From NCBI GenBank assembly GCA_003427395.1, contig BFEA01000032.1:1106316-1170315 (forward strand): 64,000 nucleotides of DNA. The letters run 5' to 3'. The position numbers and the translations under genes are program-made. This document shows positions 15,615-47,285 of the stretch, in pieces (the first letter of the stretch is position 1; the number at the start of each line of letters is the position of its first letter). This DNA comes from Chara braunii. Taxonomy: Eukaryota > Plantae > Charophyceae. The notes under the pieces are model-generated. The model was not told the origin of the DNA. It was given only the letters and a program-made list of their open reading frames with translations, and searched no databases.

Positions 15615-17934
15615 TGTTGAGCGCATCGGTCCGGCACCGCACGTGGCAGCGCGGGACCCTCTCGGTTGCCTCACGCAGGAGTTGGACCAACCTCGTCACG
15701 AACACACGAATGGAGCTTCCTTAGGCCGCTCTGGCCGAGTGTGCCAGCCATACCTCTCGCGAACCCCTACGACAGGATAGGGCCTACGCGAGGCACAACT
15801 TACCTCCACCTTACGGGAGTTGTCACCTCCCTTTGGTGGGCGTATCCCCGCCGAGCTACTAGTCCACAGTACGAAAGCTACTCGGTTGCAGTCGCAGAGG
15901 TGGACCAGTCGAGGGCGTTTCTCGTTCGCTGTAGCATAGGGGGTACGCGCGGTAATACGCCTATCGGACCCGCACGCGAACCGACATCTCAGGGGGGCTG
16001 AGGTCCCAAGCGCGACTCGTCGTCGGTCGACTAGGTCGCATCCCATACACCACGCGCCCGCCACTCTACGAACACACAAAAAAAAAGGAACACACACACA
16101 CAGACATACGAAACGACACAACACAAACCACACGACAATGCTCCTAGCCCCTTCAGTGGTCATCCCATAACTTTCCACTGCGGAAATCGGATAGGCGTCG
16201 CGCGCGAGACTTAGTATAAAACCGCGCAGACGGAGGGCCTACTCATATCGACTAGCAATGCAAGCGCACGCTAACAGTCGCGATGATGGCGTGCTATGTG
16301 GTACCCATACTCGCGCGGCCCTCGTTACTCTCAGGGGTCGCGTTCGACACTTAATTGTCGGCTGACACACACCTTGAGGATTAATCTCTCGACGCCGGAC
16401 AACCGTCATGCATGGTTGAAGACCACACACCCTCTTCTGCACCTTATGTAGAGCGGGTGGTACACAGGTCCATACCTGTGGTGGCAGTCGTTTCTTGCGA
16501 CCCTGGGGGTAACTCCTACTCCAGGCCTGGGCGAAAGTCAAGGGGTTTGACTTTGACGGCTGCCACGAACTAGAACGTCCAACCATGATAATCCCTAAAA
16601 AGCAACCAAAACACAAAAACAGGATGGGGTGAAGGTCCCTTACTTCAAAAGAAATCACGACCTTGGGGTACCCTCCCCTCTTCGGGTGATGCCAGTGGCC
16701 TACAATAATCCCAGGCATTGCGCCTGCGTGCGTGCCCGACGATCCTAGAACCTTTAGACGTTGGGCCGGCGAAACGTCGCGCGCAGAACTTTAACATAAA
16801 GCCGCGTGGCTACGAGCCAGTCCCATACCAACCAACGATGTCAGTCGTAAGTGGTAATCGCGGCTCCGGCCTCGCGATATTGAATGGCTGAAGGAATATA
16901 TCACGAGGGGTCACCCTTCACGATATTGAGCGGCTGAAGGATACGCCGTTCGGCCCTCGTGACATTTCCGCCTTCAGGGTGGGGTGCCTCGACGACCAGT
17001 GCAGATAGGCCCTGTACGAGGGGAAATTCCTCCCCGGGAGAGTCTAGGGTTTGGGATGTCCTGGACAAGGACCTTGAATCTCGGCCCAGGACCAACGTCC
17101 GACTAAGGAACCCCCAAGAAGCAAACAGGCTAAAGGGAAGGTCTTCCCTATGCCTCTCAATCTCAACCTTTAAGCAGGTTGTTAACATGGGGCCCCTCAG
17201 GCCACGCGAGCATTCATCGTAAGTGCACCCACACATATATGCACAAGGGAGATAGAGTTGCGATGATCACTGCTCACAGGCACAGTGAGACTCCTCACAA
17301 CCATATGTGTGTATATGGGACCGCAGGCAATCCGAATCCAAAATCCGAGCTGCAAGACATACATGCAATCACATCAAGATTTGAACGACAAAACATGCAC
17401 TACATGGAGTCAACCCCAACCAATCTCCGCACTCATACCCGTTGCTTTAGCCATGCAANCCCCAATCTCCTGTCCAACCAACCATAATTAAATACTGTGT
17501 ACCTTTGTCAAATGGTCATTCAATAAAAGTCCGGGCGAAACCCTCAACAAACAATAAAGTCACCAGGGCTAAAGCCTTTTAGGTTGGGTATGGAGAGTGA
17601 GTTGGAATTCAGTCTAGACCGACGAATCGACAATCGACCTGTTATCTGTGATAACAGAAGGTGATCCTCAAGGGATCAAGCTGACTCTAATCCCGATCCT
17701 AAATCGAACGACCAAGAGGACCTGCAACACAAAACAGACCAATTCCCAAGCTAAACCTATAAATCCTTGGAGGGTAACCACAATCTTGCTTCAAAAACCT
17801 ACCTAACTAACAAAGCCTAAATTTATCCTTAAGTCGTGCCCAAAGCAAAAGAAGCCTTAGCAAAACCTCCTCTATCCAGGGTGGGTCGCAAGGTCGCCAC
17901 CTGTTAAAATATAATCTATCTCTTCCAAACTAAG

Positions 17935-18240
17935 AAAATTTCGGCAGCGCTTTCCGTAGGGAAAGTGTTTTCTCAAAATTTATACAAGGCTAAGTTTAAA
18001 ACTTGAGACTAACCTTGATTTCTCAAGGTCCAATTTTGTCTAACTCCCTGAATTAACAAAAATTTGGGCAACACTCCCTTTAGAAAATGACACTTTTCAA
18101 ATTCTTACTAAGTCAGTTATATAGAAAAGACAAGTTGAACTTTGATAAGTCAAAATTTGTCTAACTCCTTGAACCTGTAGAAATTTCGGCAGCGCTTCCC
18201 GTAGAGAAAGTGGCTTACCAAAATTTATACAAGTCCAAGT
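17935..18240. repeat. Alternating repeat of about 120 bp inside copy 1 (aaatttcggcagcgcttcc / aaatttgggcaacactccc)
   Basis: Three units. The homologous array in copy 2 (33740-34290) has five. Confidence 0.8.
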
Positions 18241-18525
18241 ATGACAGTGAGCCTCAGAAAATGCAAGCACTAATCTAAGCAAAATAAAGTCAACCCAGAA
18301 AATGTAGGAATTGAACTAACTCCTATTGCTCTAGCACGTGGCGAGCCTCTAAAGCAACTACCTGTCAACCAAAGCCCCAGACCAAGTAGTAATCTCACTC
18401 AGCCACATGCAGGCCAAACCACAAACTTAAGGTAAGTACTCTCGCCAACCCCAAGCTCCTTAACAAACAATAGTTCCTGTTCCCTCTGTGAGTTATCCCT
18501 TTATACCCCACTTACATAAGGCATA

Positions 18526-19460
18526 GGTCAGGCCACCTGAACTTACAAAGCGCGCCCAACTTAGCCAGGCCTAAAGTCAGGATACCTAAACTAATAGAGC
18601 GTCCTGACTTAGCCAAGTATACACAAAACAGAGGGCACAACTACTTCACTCTTCTTTGGGCATATGACTAGACCACTCTAGTCGCCCTTAATTGTTTAAA
18701 TAGCCAAGTTGTATATATCTCTCTGAACTTAGCCTTCAAGGTGGACATAAGGCTGAGCCGCTCAACTTAGAACATTGCTCAGCCTGCCCAAGTTTACCTT
18801 CAGTTATACCTCTTAGCTATACTCTCTTCAATTGTGATAAGCTATAGCCAGGCTACCTAAACTTATAGAGTGGCCTGACTAGCCTGTTCTCAATAGCATA
18901 GTAATATAATATAACCAAATTATAACCATTAGGTTCCAACATGCGCGAGGCATTGGGTCAGACTACCTAAACTTATAGAGCGGTTTGATCCTCTGCCAAG
19001 TTCATTCCTCCGTGATCCAGTCTGTGCGAGGCAGTAGGCCAGGCTACCTAAACTTATAGAGCGGTCTGCCCCCTGCCAGAATTACTCCCTCAGAACGAAA
19101 CAGGAGAAGGGTTGAACCACCTAAACTTATAGAGCGGTTCAGACCTCCTCGTTCAAAATCAACGAAACTGGCAGAACTCCCAAATAAACAAGGCGACCCA
19201 AGGCACCTAAACTTATAGAGCGTCTTGGGACATGACAATCACTCACAGTCAAACCCTCACAAGTTAGAGCAGTCAGGTCACCTAAACTTATAAAGCGCCC
19301 TGACTCTCCATACAGTTCACAGCACTTGGTTTCCCCAAACTCATGGGGACATCCCAGCCTCCAGAGCTTCAGGCTACCTAAACTTATAGAGCGGCCTGAT
19401 GTTCCATGCAAATCAAAATAAACAAAGGGCTGGACTTCCCCAAACTTATAGGGACCTCCC
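18526..19460 (+). repeat. Spaced stem-loop array, conserved loop ACCTAAACTTATAGAGCG
   Basis: Core at about 18535, 18584, 18855, 18965, 19046, 19119, 19205, 19280 and 19376, plus a degenerate copy near 19438. Most copies are closed by a different complementary stem, and the spacers are unique. Confidence 0.9.
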
Positions 19461-22400
19461 AATCTCAACGACCCAATCAGACTACACACAATACTGCCTT
19501 CCTCCCAACCTTTCCCCAGATGCAACACCTTCCGTTCACAATCTGCTTTCAGGCAACCAAACAAAGTCTGAACTGAACTTACACACACATTCCTTTATTT
19601 CAGTCTGAGTTCACATCCTGAAAGTCAAACCAACCAGAATACAGGATTCACATCATACACTCAGTCAAACATTGAAAGGTTACAGATAGGGGTTATAGAT
19701 GGGTTTATAGAAGTCGTCAGGGAGTTACCACTCAGTTCCCTGCCTCCAGGACTCCGCATGAGTCCCGGCAGAGCTCCCACAATCGGTGGGGCAAACCTCC
19801 CACAAGGCCTTGGCGCGGATTACGGGCCATATGCCCGCCTGCAGCCTTCCTCTCAGAACCCAAGGGATTTAGACTTAGAGCAAGGAAGGCAGGGTGAGAA
19901 GGTGTGGGACTCTCAAACTCAAGAGGGGTACACTCAAGCTAGCTCGAGAGGGTCTTCAAGTCCTCAGTGCCTGAAGGCCCCAGAATGGTGGCCAAAGCAG
20001 CAGCAGCTCGGCCAACCTGTAGTCCAACCGCTGAGTCTGACTCCCCTGACGAACTCTCAGATCCGTAAAGATGACCTCCTTTCACAGCCGCTTCGCCTCG
20101 CTGCAGCAGCAGTCCTTCCTTATAGTTCAACTACCCCACCGTACACTATAGCACCGCCCTCCTCTGCGAAGAAACACTGCAATTCACATGAATGCGAGTT
20201 GGGCAGATCGTCGTATACAGCCGCAAGCCGTTACGGTATTCAGCAGCACCTGTAGCATTCCCAGCAGCGGCAGTAACTGACACAATGCGCCCACCCAGAG
20301 GCTGTAGTCAATGCTACGCCAGTAGCTTCACCGACCGAGCACAGCCCTGCCCTCTTCTTTAAGCCCAAACACCGCAATAAAGTGTTCTGGGAACATCCGC
20401 ATCAATTAGCAGCAACCAGTGACCAGCAGGGCGGCAAGCCAATTTGCAGCCCACCCGTCTTCAACGGTCGCGCCCAGGGTGGTGCAGCAGCCTAGAGTAA
20501 GCCCGATGATCCTGCCGCAGCAATATGGCAATTGGCCAGACTGTTGATGCTTGCAGTCAACGGTGGCGGCCCTGCCGCAGCCGATAGTCAATGCTGTAGT
20601 GGCTAGTAAGTGCCACTGCAGCAGCCAGCAACTTCGCAGTCTACAGCAAGACACAATGATCCCAGCAGCACAGTCGTCGAGGCAAGCACGAAGCCCGTAG
20701 TACACAAACAGCAAGGCTGCTGTAACTTGCCACCTTCTTGGTCTCCAAGCTTGTGGCCCGCCTGCAGTTGCCCGGCTCAATACACAGGTCGTGCAGGGCT
20801 TGGTTTTCGATACCGGTATATGACCACTAGCGATCAGCAACAGACGGTGAGCCGGGTCTGGTACCCATGATGAAGGTCAACTAGACCCTCGACTCCCGCA
20901 AGCGAGAAGGACCAACCTAGTTGGGTACCCGAACGACCATCGGGGGGAGAGGGGGGGTAAACCTCAGTCACAGAACAGACGAACAGCGCCCCGTCAGTGG
21001 TGAGTAACAACGCCCTGAACCCATGAAACGGGCACAGCGATCCTGACATGCGAACGCCCTTGGCCGTAGGCAAGCCTCCAACCCGCGAATGCATTCCCGC
21101 TAGTTGTCTCGACGGAATACGAAACACTGAATGAATCCATCCACATATGTAGTTAGGTTCATCCCCTCACCGCCAGTTTCGAAGGTACGCGCCCGCTCCC
21201 TCCTCACTCGTGCGGATGCTACTCGCCCGATCAAGCGCCGGCTAACAGGTAGGTCTCCAACACCTCGGCCGGCCCCAGGCCAATTCCGTCGATGCTGTGA
21301 GCCATTCGAATGAATCTCCCGCTAGGCTGCGGCCAGATACACTCACACTCGTAAGACTATCCCCGCAGCCTCACTCTCTATTAACTCCTAATCTACTGTC
21401 CTATTGCGAAATCTAACTCTACCATCACGTCCGTGCCGCCCCAAAACCCCGAACTTGCACCTTCCTCCACCCGTCTTCGTCAAGGAACGGGGGAGTTACC
21501 CCCTTTCTCGCTCACCACTCCCGCCGTCCGCCATAGCCCCGGCGCACTAAGTCTCTCTGCTAGTCTCGTTCTACTAACTCACTAACTATTCCGACTACAT
21601 TGCTGAACTCGCCCACCCCCAGAACGGTAGGAGCGCCCTTTTCCCCGACTGATTTCATCCATAGTCGAGTACAAATCACTCGTTTCTACTTCTCCCACTC
21701 CCTGTTTTCTTCAAATGTACCTGGCGCAGAACTGCGCCCCGATTCAACCGCCCCTTCCTCTGTGCCCTCCACTCTCCTGCATCCGCGCGCTGCTGCCGCA
21801 GTTAGCGTAGCGCCCGTCTCCCCCTTCGATCGTGCGTGCCATCCCTCCGGTCCGCTTCTGCCCGTTCCGTGGTTCAACTCCACCCCGTCCCTTCTGCGCT
21901 AGCGCCCGCCATGAGCTGGCCAGGCCCGCCGCCCCTGCGATTTACTGTTCGCCTCCTAACGCACCTTGCACCCGATACCGCCTAAATTCACCCACTGCTC
22001 TCCCCTCTGCTGTCTTCCCTTCACCTCCTTCGTTTTTGTCTTCCTCCCCGACTCCCTGTTGTCGTCAGTCAAAACCCGTATCCCGTCGTCACGCAACGCA
22101 CTCGCGGACGCCACGAGAGTTCAGCGAGGCAAACATCCGAAACAGGGAGCCACGCCCCAACTTTATACGCGCCGGCCCTACGCAGGGGCCGCGCTAAGCT
22201 TCTCTGCATCATTCCAATTTTAACGGACGTCCCGAAGGACTGCGGCCGGGGCGATGCCCCGCCGCGATCCCAAAAGTCACTCGGCCCCCTTTTTGCTCGT
22301 ACGTCCCCGGCCAGATCTGCGCCCGGGTTCATCCCGGATCTATGCACATCACCTTTGTGCAGTCGGCCATGCAGATCTTTTCTGCATCGTTCCGATTCTA

Positions 22401-23571
22401 GCGGGTACCTCGTAGGATCTGCGCGAGGCAGTGGCCCATAACACCACCAAGGCCATACAACCTCCCTCTACCCACGCCCGGCCCGTTTTGCGTCCGGGTT
22501 CACTCCCGGATTCGCACATATCCCCTGGGCTGCATATGCCATCCCTTCACGAGGCAGTCACGCCAATCCTTGCTGTACCATGACAAGTTTTAATGGATAT
22601 TACGAAGGGCCTGCCCACGGCCGTGCCCCGCGGCAGTTCAAATTCCACTCGGCCTTGCCACCGGGCCTGCTGACGGGGGAAACACCACCCTTAGGCAGGC
22701 CTGGACACCCCGCCCCTGCCCCGGGCTCGGACTCTGCCCGTATTTCAACAGTCCATGACTGTGCTTCCCGCTCTAAGCCCATGGTTCGACAGCCCGGACT
22801 CGGGGCCGGCGTCGGAACCTTAGCGGGGTCCGTGAATAACGGCAGGGGACAGAACGGCGGTATAACTTAAAGTGAAACCCAAAAATAGAGGGAATACTAC
22901 AAAACTTTCGGCCGCGCATGGGTCCTGCTGACGCTCCTCTGGCCCTGCAGCACGGGCCCGTGATCGGACTTTCTCAATAAAACGAAAGGGGGATAGTCCC
23001 ACAGGACCCTCAACCCCTTCGCCCCTCGCTGCTCCGTCGCTCCCACGCCACCGTCCGCTGGTCTCAAGCCTCGAACCTTCGTCTTACGACCCCGACACCG
23101 TAACCAATAGGGCTAAGCCCAAGCCTGTGACCTGCTGGCGCGGCTTCCCATATAAAACGGCACTGCGCGGCGCTTCGGGCCAAGATACCGCCTCGGCCAC
23201 CCTTTCAGCCACATCCGTACCCACGGCCCCTAGGTGCCCACGCCGGCCTACCTCCCCGCGTCGTGGCCGCCCCGTGCACCTACCGGCACGTAAGTCCCAC
23301 CGTCGGTCGCGCGCGCCGACCAAAGGCGGTCCTTCATCCCCTAACCAAGCCCGTAACACGATCCGGGTCGGCCGGCTACCCCGGCCGCCCACTCAATCAG
23401 AAAGATCACATGCGCGCCTTAAAATTGCGCGCCCACATGCTCCCTACTGGGACAAGGCAACCAACCCTCAGACACGGTCGGACCTCACACGACTTAGTCG
23501 GACCAAGCCCATTGTTCCTGTCATGTGCAAAAACCAGGGCGAATACCCTTGTAAGGGTATTTGTGCCGACA

Positions 23572-26184: not shown

Positions 26185-26189
26185 GAGAC

Positions 26190-27490: not shown

Positions 27491-27492
27491 CT

Positions 27493-27526
<34 letters not shown>

Positions 27527-28325
27527 NNNNNNNNNNNNNNNNNNNNNNNNNNNNNNNNNNNNNNNNNNNNNNNNNNNNNNNNNNNNNNNNNNNNNNNNNN
27601 NNNNNNNNNNNNNNNNNNNNNNNNNNNNNNNNNNNNNNNNNNNNNNNNNNNNNNNNNNNNNNNNNNNNNNNNNNNNNNNNNNNNNNNNNNNNNNNNNNNN
27701 NNNNNNNNNNNNNNNNNNNNNNNNNNNNNNNNNNNNNNNNNNNNNNNNNNNNNNNNNNNNNNNNNNNNNNNNNNNNNNNNNNNNNNNNNNNNNNNNNNNN
27801 NNNNNNNNNNNNNNNNNNNNNNNNNNNNNNNNNNNNNNNNNNNNNNNNNNNNNNNNNNNNNNNNNNNNNNNNNNNNNNNNNNNNNNNNNNNNNNNNNNNN
27901 NNNNNNNNNNNNNNNNNNNNNNNNNNNNNNNNNNNNNNNNNNNNNNNNNNNNNNNNNNNNNNNNNNNNNNNNNNNNNNNNNNNNNNNNNNNNNNNNNNNN
28001 NNNNNNNNNNNNNNNNNNNNNNNNNNNNNNNNNNNNNNNNNNNNNNNNNNNNNNNNNNNNNNNNNNNNNNNNNNNNNNNNNNNNNNNNNNNNNNNNNNNN
28101 NNNNNNNNNNNNNNNNNNNNNNNNNNNNNNNNNNNNNNNNNNNNNNNNNNNNNNNNNNNNNNNNNNNNNNNNNNNNNNNNNNNNNNNNNNNNNNNNNNNN
28201 NNNNNNNNNNNNNNNNNNNNNNNNNNNNNNNNNNNNNNNNNNNNNNNNNNNNNNNNNNNNNNNNNNNNNNNNNNNNNNNNNNNNNNNNNNNNNNNNNNNN
28301 NNNNNNNNNNNNNNNNNNNNNNNNN
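27527..28325. other. Assembly gap (N)
   Basis: N run. It hides the junction between the LINE and Gypsy element A. Confidence 0.99.
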
Positions 28326-28389
28326 TTTTTTTTTTTTTTCCTGTTTTCTCTTTTGTTCTGTCTTTCCTTTGTCTTCTGTCTCTTTTCTC

Positions 28390-28611
28390 TTTTCTCTCTC
28401 CGGAGCTGGGATGGCTAGTGGGATTCGAACCGCCAGCCCTTGACGACTGAAGGCGCCATCACCTCAGGCTCGCCGTCGTCTGGCTGCTCTACGCACCTCA
28501 AAGGGGCGTTCTGTCGGAGACGCTCCTTGAGATCTGGTAGAGCGCGGTCCGGCGATGCTCAATATACAGTTTGCTCCTCGTCCGGATGTGGTCCCATAGT
28601 GTCGATTCCAT
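28390..28611 (-). pseudogene. Gag N-terminus of Gypsy element A
   Basis: Minus strand reads DTMGPHPDEEQTVY*ASPDRALPDLKERLRQNAPLRCVEQPDDGEPEVM. This is homologous to DTMGVHVDTGEYQPSPGRTLRELKERIRPNAPLGCAQQPDDREPKVM at 47286. Confidence 0.8.
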
Positions 28612-28659
28612 ATACTTGTTTTCTCTCCTGGTTGAACTTGTAAGCAGCTCAGACCTGAA

Positions 28660-28790
28660 TGCTGGACCGGCAGTCCGGACCTGATGTCAGAACTCAACCC
28701 GGACCCAATGTCAGGTCTGGCAGCACGGACCTAATGCTCGAACTGGCAGCCCGGACCTAATATCAGAACTGGCAGCCCGGACCTATTTCT
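28660..28790. repeat. Tandem repeat of about 26 bp in the element A leader (ggcagcccggacctaatatcagaact)
   Basis: About five degenerate units. Confidence 0.8.
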
Positions 28791-31272
28791 GAACAGTCCC
28801 TTATGTCCTAACAACTACGCTAGGAACTTCTTCAGTTGGGGTGTTGGGCGGGAGGGCCGCAACCCTGATCAGCGGCACCCTGCAGTATGCAAAAACTTAG
28901 TGAGAAGGGCGGGCGGGATGGAGGAACACCTCTAACAACAAACTGTCGTATGACAAAAGGAAGACTCAGAATAGTCAAAATTAGGGATGTGAGAGAAACT
29001 CAATTGACATTGATAGAGAGAACTACAGAAGGGATTAGGAAGGAGGCGCGTTGACATCCTAACTGAGACTTTCCGCAGATCGACCGAGCCCTTGCGGGAA
29101 GTTGCGGATCGGAACCGCACCGAAGTCGTACTAATCTAGACTGATATAAAAAGGAAACGATGTTGAAATCCCGGTTTCGGAATGACCTATATGCCATATA
29201 TTCTAGTTCCGTCGAATATGAGGCGTGGGCTCAACTCGAGGGAGTTTTGTTTACTGCACCCTCGAGTAGGTATCCGAGCAACGGACCCTGTCCCCTAGTA
29301 AAAAACCCAAAATTAAGAGCTGAGCGTACTTACTCTTTGAAGTTTTAAGCCTTTTTTGCAATTTTAAGAGATTTTTAATCGTTTAAATTAATAAAAATTG
29401 CTTATAAACGACAAGAGAACACTACCTCGCGGTGAGCGCATAGGGGGATGCAATGAAAACCCTAGCGAGTCCGAATATTTGATAAATAATTATAAAAAAA
29501 ATAGCTTTAATAACTGGAAATTCCCGTCTCTTACCTCAGGCCTTTGGGAACAAGCCAGTAGGTTCACCCGAACCTAGGTTACCGCAGCGTCTCTTTCCCT
29601 TCTTCCTCTAGGGAATTCTTTTGTATTTTTCAATTATATATTAAAGAAAATATATTTAGTTAGGATAAAATATATTTCTTAGTTTATATATATTAAGGAT
29701 CAATACATATATAAGCCCGCCGAGTTTGGAGATTTTTAAGGGTAGAAATAAAATTTGGGGACTTTACTAAAATTTCGTCAGCGTTTCGCCTCCCCCCGTT
29801 GGGATGGGGTTCGAGCGAAGCCCTCAAACAGCGCTGCCGACGGGGGAGTATCAAAAGGAATAATGGAAAAAAAAAGAAAATTGATTTAACTTAATTTTTT
29901 AATATTTTTGATTATTAATTAGCAAAAATTTAAATTAAAAGGAAAATTTTATAAAATTTCGACAGTAGTTTTCCTTCCCTCCCCCATTAGGACGGGTTCG
30001 GAAAAAAAGTCTCTCAAATAGGTAAAGTAGATGTGAAGTGCATTGAAGTCGAACCCTACGCAATTTTTAATATTTATTTCAATTTTTATCGATTTTAAAA
30101 ATCCAAAGTTAAATAATTCAGCAATTTCCCTCCCCCCGTTGGGATGGGGTTCAGGAGATTTTTCCTTGATTAAGAAAGAGAAAAGAAAAAAAATAAAGTA
30201 AACAAAGTCGAAATCTTGGCCGCTTGAATTTTTACTGATTTTTATTATTTTAATTTAATTTTTAATTATTTAATAAAGCAAAATTTTCCTAATTAATTTC
30301 CGCAATTTTGTGCGATATATTTAACGAAAAATAATATGCAACAAACGCGGAAGCTAGAAGCTATGGCTTCCCTCTATTTACCCGCTTCTCTCAAAATTGG
30401 GGTTAGGACTTTACCCTAATTAGGGTTTCCCGTAATTAGGGTTTGGGGTGTTGCGTGCAACCCCACGCACACCACAAAGCCCCGCTCGCCGCGAGAAAAT
30501 TTTTGTTAGCTTTCACTAGGTTTAGAAGAAAAACTTATCGGATTACATTTTTAAATTTCTTTTTCTTTTAATTTAAACAAAATTACAAAGAAATTCATTT
30601 TTTCCTTGATTTTCTTTCGCCCCTTTCTATCTGTTGGTGCCCGCCGTTTGTCCGAACGAAGTCCGTTTTCCCCGACTAGGGTCTCAAAACGTCGGGGAAA
30701 TTACAAGGAACAACTTTGCTCCCCGCGGTTTTCTCCGGATTTTACTTCCTTTTTCCGTAATTAAATAAAAATAGAAACAATAATTTGTAAGTTAATAAAA
30801 AAAAATAATTTTCTCAAAAGCTAGCCGTCGGAAGTTTTCAAGAAACATCTCGAAACGTTCGCCTCAATCAGAGGACGAACTTTGCCCCCGGGGTGGCTTG
30901 CACGAAAATGCGCAGATCGGGAGATATCGAGGAAAAACGAATTAGAAATTTAAACTAGTGATTTTTTTGAGATTTTTAATTAAAAAAATAAAAAACATTC
31001 TATATCTTTTTTTCTAGCAGTTAGAATTTTTCAAAAAACGTCTCAAAACGTTCGCCTTGACGAGAGGACAAACTTAGCTTCCGGTGTAGTTCGCACGAAA
31101 ACGCGCGGATCAGGAGTTGTCAAAGAAAAACAGATTAAATAAATAAAAGTAATCATCAAAATTCGAACTAATCAAGGAGACACGATCTAATCGGGCTAAT
31201 TAGCGACCAGCTAATCAGCCCTCGCACCCCCGTTGATTGGGGAAGGCCGCGGCCTTGGGGGTGCAGTTCCCC

Positions 31273-31290
31273 TCCCCGGCAACGACGCCA
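31273..31290 (-). promoter_or_regulatory. Primer-binding site (tRNA-Asp type) of element A
   Basis: Minus strand TGGCGTCGTTGCCGGGGA, 4 nt after the LTR end ...cctaaca. It differs by one base from the Athila-type tRNA-Asp PBS TGGCGCCGTTGCCGGGGA. Confidence 0.85.
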
Positions 31291-31574
31291 ATGTTGTTAG
31301 GAAACCTGGGGAGGGGCCCCTATCGCACGCTGAAGCCAAGGGCAACGGCGCCTGTCACTCGCCGCGCCCACTTCCGAGGTCCTCAGCGAGCGGCAAGGTG
31401 TCGGGGTTTGCACTACCTATCTTGCCCCTTTTCATACGCTTCTGAATGAAGGTTTATAAAGCCATCTAATATACGAGAAAAATAAGATAAAATACAGCAA
31501 AAAATACCACTAACCGCAGATCATAAATGTGACCTTTTACCCCTGCAAACAGTTCCAAATAAAACCAAGCAGCA

Positions 31575-32047
31575 GGAGTACCTGATTGAGAATCGCTCCC
31601 GCTAGCAGCGGGAGTACCAGATTGAGCACTTCTCCTGCTTGCAGCGGGATGATTACACTAAAGTATCCCGCTAGCAGTGGAATAATCGCACTGAAGAGGG
31701 TCTTTTCCGCTAGCAACGGGATTACAGATTGTAATGTGGTGATGATTGTTGTTCCCTGCCAACAGCGAGATGATTACACTGAAGTGTATACTGAAGTGTC
31801 CCGCTAGCAGTGGAATAATCATACTGAAGAGGGTCTTTCCCGCTAGCAGCGGGACTACTTGATTGGTTGCTCACTTAAGAACACCGTTCCCGCCAGCAGC
31901 AGGATCACCTGGTTGATCACACTGAAGAATACCGTTCCCGTTAGCAGCGGGATCTCCTGATTGGTCGTGCTGAAGAGTATCGTTCCGCTAGCAGCAGGGT
32001 TGCCAGACTGGTATTTCACTAGCGAGCACCCTTCCCGCTAGCAGCGG
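31575..32047. repeat. Satellite of about 48 bp with palindromic core CCCGCTAGCAGCGGG, left part
   Basis: Degenerate tandem units, continued at 39155-39545 beyond the insertion. Confidence 0.9.
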
Positions 32048-35000
32048 TGTCAAGCGCATCGGTCCGACACCGCACCAGGGTGGCGCGGGACCCTCCCGGC
32101 CGCGTCACGCAGGAGTAGGTTAAAAAAATCCTTCGTCGCAAAATATACATGGAGCTTCCACAAGCCGCTCCGGCCAAGTGCGCCAACCATACCTCTCGCG
32201 AGCCCCTACGACAGGATAGGACCTACGCGAGGCACGACTTACCTACACCTTACGGAAACTGTCACCTCCCTTCGGTGGGCGTATCCCCGCCGAGCTACCA
32301 GTCCACAGTACGAAAGCTAATCAGTTGCAATCGTAGAGGTGGACCAGTCGAGGGCGTTTCTCGTTCGCTGTAGCATAGGGGGTACGCGCGGTAATACGCC
32401 GCTATCGGATCCGCACGCGAACCGACAGTTTGGGGGGCTGAAGTCCCAAGCGCGATTCGACGTATACAACACAAACAACGCGACAACGCTCATAGCCTCT
32501 CGGTAACCAACCCATAACTTTCCGATGCGGAAATCGGATGGGCGTCGCGCGCTGAACTTAATATAAAACCGCGCGGACGCAGGGCTAACTCATATCGACT
32601 CGTAATGCAAGCGTATGCAAGTGGTCGCAATGATGGCGTACTATGTAGTACCCATACTCATGCGGTCCTCGTTAATCTCGAGGGTCGCATTCGACACTCA
32701 AGTGTCGGCTGACACGCACTTTGAGGGTTAATCTCTCGACGCTGGACAACCGCCATGTGCGGTTGAAGACCACACACCCTCTTCTGCACTCTGTGCAGAG
32801 CGGGTGGTACACAGGTCCATACCTGTGGTGGCAGTCGCCTCTTATTGCCCTGGAGATCAGTCCCACTCCGGGCCTGGGCGAAAGTCAAGGGGTTTGACTT
32901 TGACGGATGTCACGGAATACAATGTCCAACCATAAAAATCTCCAAAAAGCAAGGGTAAAAAAGGAATCCCCCTTTTCTCTCAAGACACAATCTGGTGAAC
33001 CCTTATGCACAATCACAGTGGCCTCTCAAACACTCAGGGCACTTATAAATATATAAGGGTTGATTTTATAAGACGATCACTTCTCAAAGTCACAGTGGGG
33101 CTCCTCTCAACCATATATGTATGAAATCGCAGACAACACATCCAGAATCCGATCCACAATCATACCTGCAATCACATCAAAAGTTCAACCAGAAGTCCAC
33201 GCACTACATGGGGTCAACTTCAACCATTCGTTGCACTCATACCCCTTGCCTTAGCCATACAAGCCTCACTCGTGCAACTCTCAAATAAAATACTCAGTAC
33301 TTTTGTTGGATGATCATTCAATAAAGTCGGGGTGAAAACACAACAAAACAGTTCAATCACAAGGCTAAAGCCTTTAGGTTGGGTGGCAGGAGTGATATGA
33401 AGTTAAATCGTAAACCGACGAATCGGCAACCGACCTGTTATCGTTGATAACAGAAAGATGATCCTTGAGGATCAAGCTGAAACTAGCCCAAATTCTGAAT
33501 CAATACGATCAAGAGGACCTGTAACACAAGACAGGTCAATCCCCAGGCTAAACCTATAAGTCCATGGAGAATAATCCCCATATCACGATCTCACTCAAAC
33601 CATCTCAATTAACTAAGTCTGAATTTACCTTTAAGCAGTGCCCAAAGCAAAGGTAAATCCTTGCACAATTTTGTCCATAAAGAGTGGATTGTCAGAATCG
33701 ACACCTGTCAAAATATAAACTATCTTCTTTAAACGAAGCAAATTTCGGCAGTGCTTCCCGTAGGAAAAGTGCCTTCCCAGAATTTATATAAGCTCAAATA
33801 TGAAAGCAGAAGTAATCTCTAACTCAAGAAAATCAAATTTTGTCTAACTCCCTGAATTAGTAAAAATTTGGGCAGCACTCCCTTTAGAAAGGGAGACTTC
33901 CCAGATTTATAATAAGTCAGATATGAACCCAAAAGACAGCTCGAGCTCAACTTTAGACATAATTTAACTAACTCCTTAATTTTGTAGAAATTTCGGCAGC
34001 ACCCTCTCTAGAAAAGTGTTATTCCAAAATTTATACAAGGCTAAGTCCAGAATTTGAAAGTAACTTTGACTTCTCAAAGTCCAATTTTGTTCAACTCCCT
34101 GATTTAATAAAAATTTGGGCAGCACTCCCTTTAGAAAATGAGACTTTCCAGATTCCTACTAAGTCAGATATATGGAAAAGACAAGTTGAACTCTAAAAAG
34201 TCAAAAGGTGACTAACTCCTTGGATTTGTAGAAATTTCGGCAGCGCTTCCTGTAGGAAAAGTAGCTTTTCAAGATTTATACAAAGCCAAGTATATATATA
34301 AAAAAAAGATCTCAGAAAATGCAGGAATTGACCTAACGCCTATTGCTCTAGCACGTGGCGAGCAACCAAAGCAACTACCTATAATACTGAAACTCAAACA
34401 GACTAACCATCTCATCCAATCACATGCAAACCAAACCACAAATGTAAGTACTCTCACCATCCCAAGTTCATTCCATATAGATAGTTCATGAATCTTCAAG
34501 TCCTTGAATCCTTATACCCATCTTACATAAGACATAGAGTTGGACCATTCGCCATGGAAACAATGCCCAACTTGTCTTTATGATATACACGAACAGGTTG
34601 CACAACTACTTCTCTCTTCTTTTTGGGCAGATGACTAGGCCATTTACCATGGAAACAATGCCTGGTCGCCCTGAGCTGTTTAATATCCAAAAATTTAGTA
34701 TTTTTATGACTTTGTTTTTCAAAAAGAAAAGGCAAATATGGGCAGGGGACTGAACCATTTACAGTAGAAACAATGTTCACCTTGCCCAAACTATTTCCAT
34801 TTATACTTTGTATTTTTCCTTTTCTCTTCTTAATGATATGGCTTAACGCTGGACCATTCACAAGAGAAACTATGTCCAGCTGCCAGTTCACATGCAAATA
34901 TAGATAAAGTACTTTCCTTTATACTTAGTTTAGTTCACGTGCGTGGTTTTCGGGCTAAACCATTCATAGTAAAAACAATGCTTATCCTTAGACCAGAAAT

Positions 35001-38000
35001 CCTCCCTCAGAATAAAACAAGAAATTAAACCCCTTCAATCAGGCAAACCCCCCGAGTTAACTAGAGTAAACAGACCATTCACAGTAGAAACAATGCCTGG
35101 TTCTCCGGAAAACAACTAGATAAACATAGCAACCATGTCATTCACAGTAGAAACAATGTCTGGTCCTTTAGAAAACATCCAAATAAACATAGCCCTGAGC
35201 CATTCTTAGAAGAAACAATGTTCAGGCTTTGGTTGACCCTTCCAATTGGATAAAAAACTGTCTTCCTCCCACCTTCCCCCAATTCATACCTTAGTCTGCT
35301 TTCAGTCAAAACAAAAGGGAAACTTAAAGTTTACTTTCACACATTCTTTCCATTCAGTCTGATTGGGTCCTGAAGGGAAAACAAAAACCATAGGGACAAT
35401 CTCATGCATACAGTCATACTACAGAGAGATAAACAAAACATGGGTGGTAGTAGGTTGTACAAATGAAAGTGGTTTACCTGACGATTCCCTGCCTCCTGAA
35501 CTCCTGCTGAGTTCCGGCAGAGCTCCCGCAATCGGTGGGTGGACTCTTCACAGAGTCTTGACGCGGACCTACGGGTTGCAATCCCGCCTGCTGTCTTCCT
35601 CTTGTAACCAAGGACTAGACTGAGACTTAGAAAGGTAGATAGACAAGGGTTTGAGACTCTCAAATCCAAGGATGGTGCTCTCAGACTCACAGGAGAGGGC
35701 CTTGTTATCTTCCAACGCCTGAGGGCCCCGCAATGATGGCAAACGAACAACTTAGATCTGGTCAAGTCAATGCTAGAGTCATCCTCCCGACGACTTCTTA
35801 ATGTTCAACACAAAACACGATCACACTGTCCCGCCGACTTTTATTCTGACGTGCACTGGCCACAAATCAGGCTGTACTTCCGCGGCCAGTCCGTCGCACC
35901 TTGCCCAATATGGTGAGCACAATACTGCTGCATGCAGTAGTCTCAGCAGGCGTCGCCAACTCACACCTTTCGTCACCGCGTACTAGGCCAAGTAATACCA
36001 CTGTCCGGTTGGCGAACACACATCCCTCCTGAGCACCGCAACAGACCAATCAGCAGGCGGAAACGCGGTAGCGGACCACCCATACTCGGTCAGCTAGTGG
36101 AACCTAGCAACTGCGGCCTGACAGTCCCCCCCAGTACTCTTCACAGTGGCTCAACCAAAGAGAAGTCCTCTGCTTTGCCAATTGCCTGTAGGTATTCAGC
36201 ACTAAGAACCGCCATGCACCGCTGACTCTCAGTCTATCCCACAGTAGCAGTCTGAAGGAAGGAAACCTGTCTGATTAAAGAAGGAGACTCACTGCTTTGC
36301 TGCACAACAATTTTGCATATAATAGCATCCCTCCAATTCTCCAATCATGCAATCCCTGCAGTCTGTGGAAAACAACAGCAGCTGCATTGACCTCAGCTTT
36401 GTGATGACCGTTGTTCTCGGTGCCACCAACGCTGCAAACTCCCATCCCTGTTCAGACTTAGCTCCCGGATCCCTGCAAGCGACTCAAACATCCGACCCGA
36501 ACGACCATTATCTCGAAGTACCTGACCCACAATAGCGGTCAGGTTCACTTTGTTTCATAATGCCCGATGGCGGGCACAACTACGCACCTTGTCAGCGATT
36601 CCCTCCAGGTACGTGCTCCGCCAACATAGTGAGTCTCTCTCTCTCTCTCTCTGCCCAAGCTTCAGCCGTCAGCGGAGCGACGCAAGGGTCAACAGGTAAG
36701 TCTCCAGCCTTATGGGTTGCCTCGCATTACCTCTGTCATTAAGATAAGCAAAATCGAATGAACCTTCCACTAACGCCTGGCCATATGCATTCAACCTTTT
36801 CCCGTTTTCACCCCCGTCATTTCCCACACGGCTCTTTCTCTCCTAACCTCCATCTGTACTAACTCTCTTGCCATTCTGGCTGTAGATCCTCTGTTGCCAC
36901 TGGATGAGACCCCAAAGACTTAGTTCGTTTGCTACTCACTCGATCTTCTCAAGGATCGAGCGAATCGACAATCTCTGGTTGCGCCAGCTCTCGTCTTCAC
37001 ACCGCGCAGCCCATGCAGACAGTGCTGACTAGACCGATTCCTAGATTAAGAATCTAACATGTCCAATCACTTTAGATCGGTCTAAAACCCCTATCTGATA
37101 TTTTGTTTCGCCCGATTCCATTACGAATCGAGCGAGATACGTGCTTTTCACTCCCACTCTTCCTTCGTTTTCACCTCCGCCATATCCCGCGCGCAACCTT
37201 TTCTATCTAACTCCTATCCTAACCAACTAATCTCAAAACTAACCACACCATCATACTTACGCCGCCCAAAAACCTCCATTTTGCATCTTATCTCGCTCGA
37301 ATCCACGACGGATCGAGCGAGATTCGAGCATTTCACTCCTACCACCTCTTCCCTCCTTGCCATCTCCGCGTAGTCTGTACTTCGTCCGGCTCTAAATCTA
37401 CTAATTTGTCCCTAAAACTAACCTCACAATCATATTCGCCCTGCTCCTAACCCTCAGATTCAACCTCGCATTCACCCGAATCCCCTTCTATCGGAGGAGG
37501 AACTCCCTTTTTCCTTTTTCCTCCTTCTTCATTCTCGTTCCCGCCATAGCGTCACGCACTACTCTTTCTACTAACCTCCTTCTACACTAACCTACTGTCG
37601 ATTCTGACTTCAGAATCGGGGTCGCGAGGCCCGAGAACCCCCGATTCGAGTCCTACCCCGCCCGTGTTCGTTAAGAAACGAGTGTGATCAGCATTCTCCT
37701 TCCTGCCTCCCCTTCCCCATCACCGTTTCCTTCTCTGCATGCACTTTGCCCGCCCGTCCGTCCAAATTCATTCGCTCTTCGTACTGCCTTCGCTTCACCA
37801 CTCCGCCTCAACACTCCCACTGCGCTATTCTTTCCATCCGCAGCTCTGTAGCGCTGCCCAGCCAGTCGGCCCAAGCTCCGACCATCCCGAGCGAAACCTC
37901 GGAGGGACTCAGCTACTAGACGGTTTGATTAGTCTTTCGCCCCTATAGTCCACCAGACAGTGTGCCTCCCGTCTGCGCCACTGCTCCGCCGCTCGGCCCG

Positions 38001-39154
38001 CTGCTGCGCCACGCTGCATTAGCGTTCGTCGGGCCTCAGTCCGACGCTACCACCTCCCCGTTGCCTTCTCCCCCGAATGCACCCGGCACGGGCCCCGTCC
38101 AGGTTCACTCTGTTCTTCTTCGTAGTCGCCTGTTCGCTACCTGGCCCGCCGGCTGCTGCATAACGCAGCACCACCGACTCCGCCGTCCAGGCTCACCCTG
38201 CCAAACTCTCTACTCATCCCGGTTGCCGGTTTCTTCGGCCTATGGTCCGGGGGCGGCCTGCCACAACCCTTTCTTGCCCCGCTCCGCTCCGACGGTGTCC
38301 ACCACCACCTCGGACCCCCAACAGACAAACTCCCGTTCACTCAGTTGGCCGTGGACCCGCGGCCCGCTGTAAGGCCTATACGTGGGCCTTGGTGAAGCGG
38401 GCCTCGTACGACCTTCGGTGGTAATTCCAATGAGAACTCTGAAGACCGAAGTGGAAGAAAAGCCCTGCGGGCGGACCGCGTGGGGACGGACGGTGCTCCT
38501 TGGCCCACGCACCAAAATAATTAGGATACAGAAATGCCGCCGGCACCCCAAGCGAGCGAGAACCCGCAGGCCAGCCTTAAAAGGCGCGCACTCAAGGTCC
38601 TTGACCGCCGCGACGACCATTAGATCCGGCGTCCCGTCCAAATCAATGCCCCGCCGGGGTATATATATATAAAAAAAAGAAAATACGGCACTTGAATAAA
38701 ACTATTTAGAAAACGCCACCACCGATCGGACGCCGCCACTAGCAAAACCGAGGGGGATAGCCCCGCGACCTTCAACCCCATCGGCTTTCTCCCCGATGCT
38801 CCGCTGCAGCGGCGTCGACGCTAGCCGGCCTCGCACGCGCGCTCTCCTCGGTCAAACGTACCAACCAAGGAAAAATATCCCTTAATCCTGCTTAATAAAA
38901 AATAAACAAACATTGATAATATCGTTGCATAAAACGACCGACGTCTGCGACGACTTTATAATCAACAACAAAAGGATTCACGCACGCCTTAAACCTGAGC
39001 GCCCACGCACCCTTTACTCTAGTCTACCATCCAGTCAACGTAATCACAGACACAGCCGCGCCTAGCGCGGTATACTTAAACTTTAAACCAAAATTATTTT
39101 CTGTCGCCTGCAAAAACCAGGGCGGATACCCTTATAAGGGTATTCGCGCTGACA
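32048..39154. mobile_element. Giant non-coding TG...CA element (solo-LTR-like), copy 2, 7107 bp
   Basis: Starts tgtcaagcgcatcggtccg and ends gatacccttataagggtattcgcgctgaca. Perfect 4-bp TSD gcgg (32044-32047 and 39155-39158). Removal restores the satellite unit ctagcagcgggatcacc. Confidence 0.9.
34538..35228 (+). repeat. Spaced stem-loop array, conserved core CATTCACAGTAGAAACAATG
   Basis: Eight copies at about 34546, 34641, 34756, 34855, 34961, 35076, 35139 and 35201. Each has a different outer stem and unique spacers. Confidence 0.9.
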
Positions 39155-39545
39155 GCGGGATCACCTGATTGGTCACTCGGAAGAGTACCGTTCCCGCTAG
39201 CAGCGCTAGCAGCGGGATTGCTGATTGGTAATTTGCTGGCGAACACTGTTCCCCCTAGTAGTGGGACCACCTGATTGATAGAACTGAAGGGCACTGTTCC
39301 CGCTAGCAGTGGGACCACCTGATTGATAGCACTAAAGGGTACTGTTTCCGCTAGCAGCGGGATCGCCTGATTGATCACGATGAAGGGTATTGTTCCCGCT
39401 AGCAGTGGGACCACCTGATTGATAGCACTGAAGGGTACTCTTCTTGCTAGCAGCGAGATCTCCTGATTGATCACGATGAAGAGTACCGTTCCCGTTAGCA
39501 ATGGGGTTGACAAATTTGTAACTCGCTGATAAGCATCGTTCCCGC
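39155..39545. repeat. 48-bp satellite, right part
   Basis: Period 48 (ctgttcc at 39246 and 39294). Confidence 0.92.
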
Positions 39546-41231: not shown

Positions 41232-41641
41232 CTGGGCTAGCTCTTCATATTGATAAGCTGCTCCTGTTTAGTGTGAAACAGAAGCTAGCCCAGTAGGTTA
41301 CATCCCCCGACTCTTACCCAGCACGTACTGGGATCGAATCTGACAGGACGCATCTTTGGGTTGGCTCCTTTTTGGAGTTGGCCACCTTGCCATCAGCGCA
41401 GTCGATTTCGACCATCGATCTCGAAGATCGCACGGCCGAGATTGGTCGCGCGCAGTTCAGCAAGGCCCCTGCACAAAGGTGACACGCATAAATCAAAAAA
41501 TTGTCCAAATTTGTTTTCTCGATCCCGAAAGGGATCGAATTCGGATCCACATTTCAATAGTTCGTGGGTGAGCCCACAAACGCTGCGCGACCGTTGGCAT
41601 AAAGCCAACGGGAAAGTCTAAAGAAAAAAAAAAAAAAAAAA
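41232..41641 (+). mobile_element. Putative SINE-like structured element: tRNA-like head, U6 3' half, A-tail
   Basis: A-box-like tagcccagtagg, Lys-like anticodon arm gactctta, B-box-like gggatcgaatc, a U6 segment at 41459-41512, several hairpins and an A-rich tail at 41619-41641. No TSD identified. Confidence 0.5.
41459..41512 (+). pseudogene. U6: U6 snRNA 3'-half fragment
   Basis: agcaaggcccctgcacaaaggtgacacgcataaatcaaaaaattgtccaaattt vs plant U6 AGCATGGCCCCTGCGCAAGGATGACACGCATAAATCGAGAAATGGTCCAAATTT: 47/54 identical by manual alignment, no gaps. Confidence 0.85.
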
Positions 41642-42024
41642 CCTGCTTATGCGGTGCCAGTTGGCACACAGAGAGAGGCAGGGGCTTACAGTCCCTGAGA
41701 AGAGAGCACGACGCCGCTTTCAACGGCACCTGACTGTTGTTTTTTCTCTTTTAGATTTTCTTATTTTTTTTTTTTCTTTTTACTTTTCTTAGATTTCGTT
41801 TTAAATTCTTTAGTTAGATTTTTTTTCTGGGCTGAAGAAGCCCGTTCACAGTTCTCGTCGGGATTGCAAACCAGACAGACACTCGCTGCGCCTGAATAAG
41901 GCGTTGAAAGAGAGCAGGATGTGGGGCTGTGCCAGACTGTTTCGTCGGACTCACCGACTCATTAGGGGGTTGGACCCCGACAGTCTACATACGTGAACAT
42001 GGCTTCTAAGGCGCCTAGATACAG

Positions 42025-42061
<37 letters not shown>

Positions 42062-43399
42062 CTACCTACCCTACCTACCTCCTACCTACCGCTACCTACC
42101 TACACGCCACATATAGCGTGAGCAAAATCGAATGAATCTTCCGCAGGAACGCGGAAGAATACAGTCATGAGCAGTGGCCAAGGCCACTCCTAGTGCTGCG
42201 GCCGCCAGACACTCCCCGTTCGTGGCTGTTGAAGTACAGCCAAAAGGGAAAGAAACGGGGAAGGACTAAGAAATGAAGTTAATTTAAAAAACTGTAAAAA
42301 AAAAAAAAAACGAACGAGGCAACTGCCTCGTGGTAGGTAAACTGTGTGGGAGCACAAAAGATCCCACTTTGTTTTTTTACCAACTCACCGTGGCCGCGAG
42401 ATCTTGAATCTCACGACCCACAGTACTTGCGTGGGAAAGAGAGAAGGAGAGAGGGACGTGGGAGTTAGGAGGGGGAGGTCCTACTCCTCCCAACCTGCCA
42501 ACTGTCTTCCCCGTTTTTAGGGGAAGGTAGAGGAGAGTAAGGGAAGGTTGTTGCATGCAACAGCACGAACCTGGCTGAGGTAGAAGCCAGGTTCAGTGAA
42601 AATTAGAAAGATAGTTTTTTTCTTTTCCTTTTCTTCATTTTCTATCAGGACACTTGTCCTTACGTGGTGCTACCTCTGGCACAAGCTGCCAGAGGTAATT
42701 GTCAGGCTCCCGTTTTTGCTGGGAGCCTAGAAAATTAAAAGCCACTAAGGGAAAGGCTAGATGCAGCCTTTTCCTCGATGTATCTGCCCTGAAAAAAAGG
42801 TCCGGATACATTAAACTGAAAAGGGTTCTATCTTTTCAACCCTTTATTAGAAAATAAAAGAAAAACACTTTTGGAAATGACAGGAGACCAGCTATCTCGC
42901 CAGATTCCGAGATAGCTGGGGAAAAAAAAAGAAAAATGAAAATGGGGCGGTTAAAGAAACTGCCCCACACTAAGGCTGTGGTTGTGGTGCGGCCACAGTC
43001 AACCCTGGATCTTGGCAGATCTAAGGTTCACAGTGAGCCCGCGATTTTGCCTGGGGGCTGGAGTGACGTCCAACCCTCCTCAGCCACTATAAAACAGCCA
43101 GTTGCCCCCAGCTGCCACACAAAGCATTCGTGCTGTCATTTTGTGACGTGCACTTGAGTGCTGCTGGGCTGCTGAGGCGCTGCCTGAGGCAAGGAGGAGG
43201 AGTTGGAGATCTACAGAGGAGCGCGAAGAGGAAGACTGGGCAGCCATAGCTAAGGCAGGGAGCACTCTGCTCTTCTCCCCTCTGGCTGGTGCTGGTCCCA
43301 CGGGACAGACCCAGTAGTACTGCGGGACTGCGCCAATGCGGCGCTGTGAGATTTGGGCCTGGGGCCCAAATTTTACCAATTTTGGCCTGTCATTTTCTC

Positions 43400-43830
43400 A
43401 CTACGGTGGGGAAGTGCTGCCGAAATTTTACAGCGCCACTCCCGGTTTTTACTGCGGTGGTACCGAAGTGCTGCCGAATTTTGCCAGCGGTGGCACCGGG
43501 TTTTTCTGCGGTAGTATCGAAGTGCTGCCGAATTTCTGCAGTGGCGGCACAAGTTTTATCGGCGGTGGTGCGAAAGCGCTGCCGAAATTCTACGGCGGCG
43601 ACTACGGTTTTATCGGCGGTGGTGCGAAAGCGCTGCCGAAATTCTACGGCGGCGATTACGGTATAATCGGCGGTGGTGCGAAAGCGCTGCCGAAATTCTA
43701 CGGCGGCGACTACGGTTTTATCGGNTGTGGTGCGAAAGCGCTGCCGAAATTTTTCGGCGGCGACTCCGGTTTTACCAGCGGTGGTGCGGAAGCACTGTGA
43801 AAATTTTACGGCGGCGACGCAAGGTTACCG
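43400..43830. repeat. 54-bp minisatellite (gcggtggtgcgaaagcgctgccgaaattctacggcggcgactacggttttatcg)
   Basis: About eight units, period 54. Confidence 0.93.
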
Positions 43831-46263: not shown

Positions 46264-47285
46264 ACTTATGGTTTCACGAGGTAGTCTAAAAAAAAACAAA
46301 TACAAAACACTATTATGTAAATAGGACCGCCGGATGGATAGTATTCGGATTACCCCGATGATTTCACTATCATGTTTTGGCATTGAGGGGTAAATAAATA
46401 GGAAGTAAAAAGTAAACAAATTTATTTCTTCAATCTAAAGTTATCTTTAGACTTTTATGAGAAACACAAGTAAAGAAAATTCCAAAAACAAATTCAGATC
46501 GAGTAAATAGATCTAAGAGGTGTTCTTTATACAGAGGAGGTTACACCTGCGACGAGGAGGAAGTAAGACATCATGATTTTTTTTCTTGTTAGATGAAATC
46601 AATCATGTTAAGTATTACTTTTTAATTGTTGGAATGATTGACTGTAAAATTGATCCATGTATGTATTGCTTTGAAAAGTTATCTATTTTGATGAGTATGA
46701 TATGCATGGACTGGGGTTGAATTGTTTGTTTTCTTAATTACCCTAGTCAACCGACGTTTGCTTCATCCTTAGGAGATCAACTCCCTAAGTGACGAACAAC
46801 GTCCGGGTGCAACACGCGTTTAATTCTCGTATACATATACTACAGCGTGCGAGCAAACGCCCTTGGTCGACCCCCCTCTGCAATTGCATATTAAGACTTT
46901 CGCATGTGGGTCGGTAGCTCGGTAGGGATACCCCCCTAAGGGTGGTGACAGCCCCTTAAGGAAGCAAGCTTATGCATCGCGGAAACCTGTCCTGTCGTAG
47001 GAGACCTCTGGAAGTACAGCTGGCGCACCCGGCTAGAGCGACGAAGGGACGACGCGACCGCCCACCGTCTCGGCGGCTCTTGGAAACTATTTCGCTCTTG
47101 TCCCTAAGTTGTCTCTGTGTTTTGTTAAAGTCGTGTAACTCCTGCGTGACATGGCCGGGAGGGCCCTCGTTTTTACGCGAGGGCCGATGCGCTCAACAAT
47201 GGACTTATAGCTCTGAGGGTAGTAGACGGTCCTACCGGGGCTTATTCATTAGCTCCAGGCTCCAAAGGAGCCACTTGCACCAAGT

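Follow-up and report, generated by a model that had tools for sequence, protein, structure and literature searches.

To our knowledge, it is poorly known how long terminal repeat (LTR) retrotransposons of the plant lineage choose their own RNA and how subfamilies keep to, or escape from, each other's machinery. The psi site recognized by retroviral Gag, the packaging hairpins of Ty1 and the trans-activation response (TAR) element and Rev response element (RRE) of human immunodeficiency virus (HIV) are bulged stem-loops in LTR or leader RNA, and psi and RRE lie in spliced-out regions, by which they mark unspliced RNA. Three further systems are relevant here. In the zebrafish long interspersed nuclear elements (LINEs) ZfL2-1 and ZfL2-2, recognition of the hairpin by the element's protein is general for the stem and specific for the loop (Hayashi et al. 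2014, PMC4176376). The hairpin-forming LTR units of Sireviruses vary from family to family, among members and from locus to locus (Bousios et al. 2016, PMC4728375), and the 9-bp motifs that the VANC protein of VANDAL transposons binds as double-stranded DNA are arranged in tandem repeats (Hosaka et al. 2017, PMC5735166). We analyzed a 64,000-nucleotide stretch of the Chara braunii genome (GenBank assembly GCA_003427395.1, contig BFEA01000032.1, positions 1,106,316 to 1,170,315, forward strand; hereafter the window, numbered from its first base), which is rich in repeats and contains two related giant LTR-like elements, copy 1 and copy 2, each with an array of hairpins.

An earlier note on this DNA had proposed that the two arrays share their architecture and carry completely different loops, exchanged together as a swappable subfamily code. 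We found that the hairpin array is real and apparently undescribed, with heads (the hairpin tips) that are typical of the subfamily. Our preferred reading, which we hold at somewhat less than an even chance, is that the array would be a repeated docking site on retrotransposon RNA for an element-encoded protein, most plausibly Gag. The main features are as follows.

32048..39154, minus strand: copy 2, a 7107-bp TG..CA element, likely a solo LTR, inside a 48-bp tandem array that is present on both flanks
15615..23571, minus strand: copy 1, a 7957-bp TG..CA sister element, likely a solo LTR
34537..35228, minus strand: hairpin array of copy 2 (type B); its eight units combine a constant frame and a central hexamer that varies, and their 7-bp outer stems covary
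18527..19465, minus strand: hairpin array of copy 1, with nine type-A heads, two third-type heads, one hybrid head and one empty stem
18750..18785, minus strand: hybrid unit of copy 1 and ortholog of copy-2 unit 3, with a type-A hexaloop set in a frame like that of type B
18666..18683, minus strand: headless stem of copy 1, orthologous to copy-2 unit 2; other family members have a type-B head here

Hairpin units and their stems

The eight units of copy 2 described in the earlier note are present and start at 34545, 34640, 34755, 34854, 34960, 35075, 35138 and 35200, and the five stem pairings it quoted were all found in the sequence. The 20-mer motif said to be shared by all eight survives in a looser form: six units match it within three mismatches, compared with none in 100 shuffles of the window, only two match exactly, and two have four mismatches and a different core. 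When the eight units were aligned, 11 columns were invariant. All of these belong to the frame, and the six bases at the center of the loop occur in six forms, so that the invariant part is the frame and not the loop. Copy 1 has 12 heads of three kinds (the third-type heads lie near 19334 and 19438) plus one headless stem rather than eight units. Identity within the arrays is 0.92/0.81 for the heads, 0.44-0.61 for the arms and about 0.30 for the spacers. Tandem Repeats Finder reported no tandem array over either hairpin array, and the Rfam 15 covariance models gave no match over either one at E values up to 5. A literature search, in which subscription papers were mostly out of reach, found no description of this array.

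Both main head types fit a single shape composed of a stem, a bulge, a 3-bp stem and a hexaloop. For type B, RNAalifold favors the fold given in the earlier note, which has a 12-base loop; the alternative fold, with a 3-bp upper stem and a hexaloop, fits the variable block and sets all head types in one register. Given this common shape and the existence of a hybrid unit, "completely different" overstates the distance between the loops.

When each left arm was matched with the right arm of its own unit, type B had 44 Watson-Crick pairs of 56, against a mean of 30.3 with permuted arms (p=0.0005). For type A the count was 48 of 63 versus 34.5 (p=0.0001), lowered by two units that are one base out of register. 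In the named type-A structure, eight of 13 pairs had double-sided changes (0 of 500 shuffles); type B had 14 cells with such changes (2 of 500 shuffles) and a covariation score reached by none of 500 shuffles, counts that the relatedness of the units can inflate. In slid controls for both types pairing fell to 26-47%. The complete copy-1 array folded with z scores of -5.6 on the minus strand and -6.0 on the plus strand. Structure is kept by compensatory changes, as in retroelement RNA recognition hairpins, more weakly so for type B, and the stem covariation points to a single-stranded structure.

The wider family gave a further view of the stems. We picked by hand 16 stem positions among the 40 rows listed for each of two read tables (which hold 1209 and 226 further rows). 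Substitution of the commoner family letter, which was the majority letter at 15 of the 16, restored a Watson-Crick pair at 11 positions, gave wobble or A-C pairs at four (two of which are the partners of one G-C/A-T pair) and left one mismatched. At four further listed rows the family letter restored the head motif. Because the commoner family letters restore stem pairs and head motif, the family is better paired than the decayed copies 1 and 2.

These data bear on a neutral history, in which quasi-palindrome repair would keep the arms complementary and gene conversion would homogenize the tips, with no selection on structure. Such repair should erase bulges and mismatches, and the same ones recur and persist in every unit. 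The better pairing of the family majority also speaks against neutrality, as do compensatory changes in the loop-closing stem, where unit 18536 has an A-U to G-C change and the third type has a C-G rich upper stem. A neutral history would accommodate the lack of folding excess in the copy-2 array, the gain and loss of units (12 versus eight, one empty stem and unit-skipping joints in contigs) and the inflation of covariation counts by relatedness. We regard it as quite unlikely.

Head replacement at aligned positions

When the heads were masked the two arrays aligned in register at both ends, and the anchors and the equal length of the first unit in both copies were as the earlier note described. 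Arm-plus-flank similarity of the six aligned pairs averaged 23.0, compared with 15.9 (standard deviation 3.0, maximum 22) for the 90 other cross pairs, a test that is partly circular in that the pairs were chosen from that same alignment. Four of the six scored above every other cross pair. For pair 19047/34960 the downstream flank scored 32 versus a null maximum of 15, and orthology of pair 18856/34854 is plausible. The proposal of orthologous array positions therefore stands in part: stems and flanks are kept and the tips follow the element at about six sites, each with a plausible copy-1 partner, and the remaining two of the eight copy-2 positions (35075 and 35138) have no assigned partner.

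At the six paired positions copy 1 has a type-A head three times and a hybrid head, a third-type head and an empty stem once each, which makes a change of every unit in concert an overstatement. Heads were replaced in place, not uniformly, and units were also gained and lost (12 versus eight).

Intermediate and mixed arrays, which the earlier note had suggested looking for, were found: hybrid and third-type heads occur in copy 1, in genomic contigs and in RNA reads. At the first-unit position, loose ends from family members show a head in which the type-A hexaloop sits on an upper stem rich in C-G and the 3' side is like that of type B; this head was seen in 32 contigs in X1 and 64 reads in X7 (X-numbers designate sequencing data sets). 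At the empty site of copy 1, family members have a type-B head in 16 contigs, with a loose end at 18699, and at the hybrid site a type-B-like head is found in four contigs in X5. Genomic contigs also show unit-skipping joints in the arrays. The head types form a graded series, not two unrelated codes. What remains of the swappable subfamily code is that heads differ between the copies in place; it is not binary, as hybrid and third-type heads occur in copy 1 and in the family.

Elements, neighboring blocks and transcripts

Both copies start with TG, end with CA and have short imperfect inverted ends and 4-bp duplications of the NCGN type. The target duplication of copy 2 is GCGG (32044-32047 and 39155-39158) and that of copy 1 is GCGT/TCGT, with three of four bases alike. 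The copies are colinear along their length; their identity is highest at the left end (84-86%), falls to about 74% ahead of the array and is 58-67% in the portion further right. Self-comparison found no second internal repeat of the ends of either copy, and a Pfam scan of 15 proteins, including four element open reading frames (ORFs), found no domain in the element ORFs and no internal gag-pol in the copies. Each copy thus has TG..CA ends, a target duplication and a single LTR with no internal gag-pol, as expected of a solo LTR. A two-LTR or internally deleted element was rejected, since the ends are not repeated inside the copies, and a retrozyme was rejected for lack of a ribozyme match within either element. 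The orientation comes from a related LTR end elsewhere in the window.

46742..47198, plus strand: 3' end of an LTR from a sister family; behind it lie a site that starts with TGG and resembles a primer-binding site (PBS) and a broken gag

The left ends of copies 1 and 2 are 67-70% identical to this segment, over about 460 bp only. We read the copies as minus-strand solo LTRs because this similar LTR end precedes a PBS-like site, which we take to resemble an initiator-Met site, and gag. The gag match of the sister family (47286-48815) is broken and has a CCHC knuckle, and its relative P0002 has a Retrotrans_gag domain. Out of 1107 candidates, the only matches of the gag-like ORF at 48372-49397 were two proteins of Chara braunii, in agreement with a Chara host. 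Judged from sequence, the most likely identity of copies 1 and 2 is that of giant minus-strand solo LTRs from a very high-copy Chara family of the Ty3/Gypsy type. A second gag start, related to that at 47286, lies at 28454-28603 (minus strand) beside an assembly gap. A broken chromovirus-type pol with reverse transcriptase, RNase H, integrase zinc finger and chromodomain lies at 54321-57400 (plus strand); neither this nor any other pol gene in the window is linked to the hairpin family. No tRNA genes were found in a scan.

The family is clearly very large. In the genomic run X1 the summed contig depth, which is not a copy number, was 320,000-440,000 at the left end, 22,000-37,000 on the copy-2 array and 4,000-43,000 on most of the copy-1 array; single listed contigs had depths of 5-16. 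Positions 35850-38900 of copy 2 are nearly unique. Exact-word scans for family DNA found no match in metagenome contigs, viral contigs or prokaryote genomes.

The distance from the array to the ends of the LTR is 3.9-4.1 kb on one side and 2.5-2.9 kb on the other, a middle position that would suit a DNA-level cis-regulatory region. In this reading the repeats would be sites for host transcription factors or for an anti-silencing protein, and the hairpins a by-product or cruciforms. Sireviruses have an LTR cis-region with about seven palindromes that differ among families (PMC4728375), VANDAL units have often changed jointly (PMC5735166), and the folded strand of the Chara hairpins is undecided, all of which would suit such a region. 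However, the Sirevirus arms are conserved (PMC4728375), whereas here the arms covary and the tip is fixed, which a double-stranded site does not need. Moreover, the units are not tandem repeats; the spacers between them have about 30% identity, and none was called there by Tandem Repeats Finder. We consider a DNA-level role unlikely.

Several conserved blocks flank the arrays.

35478..35600, minus strand: exon-like block, conserved, directly 5' of the array and ending at a donor-like GT; the copy-1 counterpart is at about 19730-19851
18316-18437 and 19490-19553 (copy 1), 34332-34449 and 35255-35315 (copy 2), plus strand: splice-like signals
33698..34297, minus strand: second repeat block, 3' of the array, with a period of about 123/245 bp; in copy 1 at 17894-18246

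In a chimeric gene model of Chara braunii, one exon-sized segment consists of residues that match 35600-35478, and it ends at the donor-like GT. The RNA reads come from relatives of these copies and are few (99% alike in 3 of 269 in X6 and 0 of 46 in X8). First mates in X8 fell on the plus strand only across the copy-1 array, and in X6 first mates on plus were in excess by 29 to 1 at 35372-35609 and by 0.25-0.47 to 0 on the copy-2 array. If the libraries are of the usual type, the X8 reads and most X6 reads are minus-strand sense RNA, and most family transcripts would be sense. Normalized to DNA depth, X6 coverage of the block 5' of the array exceeded that of the array itself about 20-fold (29 versus 1.1-1.8), a rough measure of an enrichment that was not seen in X7. 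Together these data suggest, without proof, that the array sits behind a splice donor. A loose end in X6 (nine reads) has an 11-base word common to 17397 and 33201 only, and its junction aligns uncleanly; it could be a splice that skips the array and is only a lead.

On the plus strand both copies have an acceptor-like site, a donor-like GTAAGT about 90 bases on, before the array, and then a pyrimidine tract with CAG after the array, which weakly suggests an antisense transcript whose intron would be the array. One alternative is that the hairpins act in such a transcript, or that they are RNA sites for a host factor in splicing, export, stability or elongation, comparable to TAR or RRE. Both the exon-like block with its donor-like GT just 5' of the array on the minus strand and the retention of the plus-strand acceptor, donor and tract in both copies could be accommodated, as could the antisense excess of X7 in many bins, and the bulge-plus-hexaloop shape resembles the hairpins of TAR and of the iron-responsive element (IRE). 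A single host factor would hardly account for array-wide, subfamily-specific changes of head, the listed RNA rows contain no spliced joint and Rfam has no match on either array, and we find a host-factor or antisense role improbable.

Other repeats were noted in and near the elements. The 54-bp tandem array at 43351-43818 and the 123/245-bp repeats (17894-18246 and 33698-34297) have one 12-base motif in common, in the same sense orientation. A second repeat with a period of about 180 bp and long hairpins occupies 37084-37700 in copy 2, where that element is variable; a diverged counterpart lies at 21358-21712 in copy 1. Five perfect 8-12 bp hairpins with unrelated loops cluster at 42567-42919.

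Copy 1 also contains tandem units derived from U6 small nuclear RNA (snRNA) at 22141-22240 and 22318-22429 (minus strand), scoring 53.7 bits (above the gathering score) and 30.6 bits, and a weak third at 22539-22608; copy 2 has no clear U6-like unit. Pairing between the heads and the copy-1 units, an idea formed by eye, was dropped on that account. A U6 3' half at 41452-41514 (plus strand) lies 400 bp from a type III hammerhead match at 41934-41986 (minus strand; 48 bits, gathering score 48.5), and this locus (41452-41986) may lie in another giant LTR. An LTR with U6 pieces calls to mind Cassandra, Helenus and Ajax; the word snRNA is absent from the accessible part of the paper on these elements (PMC10886601).

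A proposed docking site and its known counterparts

The proposed docking of an element-encoded protein is conveniently divided into steps. The hairpins, each with an outer stem and a bulge below a 3-bp upper stem that closes a six-base loop, would form in the sense (minus-strand) transcript. The position of the array just 3' of a donor-like site would keep it mainly in unspliced genomic RNA, like retroviral packaging signals, and the many hairpin copies would provide avidity. Template switching or gene conversion would spread heads within an array as the stems stayed put, and subfamilies would drift stepwise through hybrid heads with no jump between two codes. Orthologous stems and flanks with element-specific tips fit a recognition site that differs between subfamilies. 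A bolder form of the proposal, which we consider rather doubtful, is a multivalent RNA address of 8-12 hairpins whose heads would be rewritten stepwise (B, hybrid, third, A) as the specificity of the subfamily Gag changes. If it is true, living intermediates would record the switch of a packaging code without loss of function.

A number of observations weigh against docking of an element-encoded protein. The variable type-B hexamer and the three head types within one copy speak against a strict lock. The structural data are uneven: type-B double changes occur in five of 11 pairs, which was equaled in 184 of 500 shuffles and is not significant; the whole copy-2 array folded no better than shuffles (z of -0.17 on the minus and +0.56 on the plus strand, 20 shuffles each) and single type-B units gave z scores of -2.6 to +1.0. 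The folds leave the folded strand undecided, the copy-1 z scores being similar on both strands, and wobble pairs were found on both strands. RNA in X7 comes from both strands, with an antisense excess in many bins, and no RNA splice joint was present among the listed rows. No protein partner was found. Neither element has an intact recognizable ORF, accessory or other, in the Pfam scan and protein searches, and a protein search with an ORF-like stretch that lies upstream of the sister LTR end found nothing. The ORF beside the array had no match among longer proteins and one among 1.84 billion representatives; the block next to the array has a single protein match, which covers 41 residues of a chimeric C. 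braunii gene model. The Gag of the sister family is the only candidate partner in view. The lock-and-key mechanism is less clean than first stated, and we consider it plausible but unproven.

In length and target choice the copies can be compared with described plant elements. Ogre LTRs are also very long at 1.9-6.5 kb, yet copies 1 and 2 exceed that range (PMC6431247); indeed, these 7-8 kb LTR-like units appear to be longer than any LTR found in the literature that we searched. As a major plant survey used a 6-kb LTR limit (PMC6317226), standard searches would miss such elements. The NCGN insertion preference reported for Phygy (PMC6317226) agrees with both target sites of copies 1 and 2, a sample of two, but Phygy elements are short (PMC6317226) and the LTR-like units here are 7.1-8.0 kb.

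The VANDAL/VANC system, to which the earlier note appealed, has in common with these arrays family-specific motifs in noncoding arrays whose units change jointly (PMC5735166). It fits poorly, because its double-stranded sites, which lie in tandem repeats (PMC5735166), would not need covarying stems. VANDAL is a DNA transposon that encodes VANC, whereas copies 1 and 2 have LTR-type ends and a 4-bp duplication, are not Mutator-like transposons with a VANC ORF, none having been found in either element, and do not have their motif in tandem repeats. Sireviruses likewise have several hairpin-forming units per LTR (PMC4728375), but with conserved arms and a variable center in a Copia LTR of about 1.3 kb, in contrast to the covarying arms and conserved head of the 7-8 kb elements here.

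Retroviral and Ty1 hairpins differ in being one or a few distinct structures, in contrast to an array with a homogenized head on covarying stems, and no sequence likeness to them was seen, there being no Rfam match on the arrays. A family with thousands of copies, orthologous hairpin positions and intermediate heads would make RNA-protein co-evolution testable. The stringent LINEs have a single 3' hairpin in a non-LTR element and a proven partner, whereas the Chara elements have 8-12 dispersed LTR hairpins with mixed heads, for which no partner was found. What the two would have in common is the principle: reading of stem and loop by the element's own protein gives LINEs a family-specific self-recognition (PMC4176376), and the same is proposed here.

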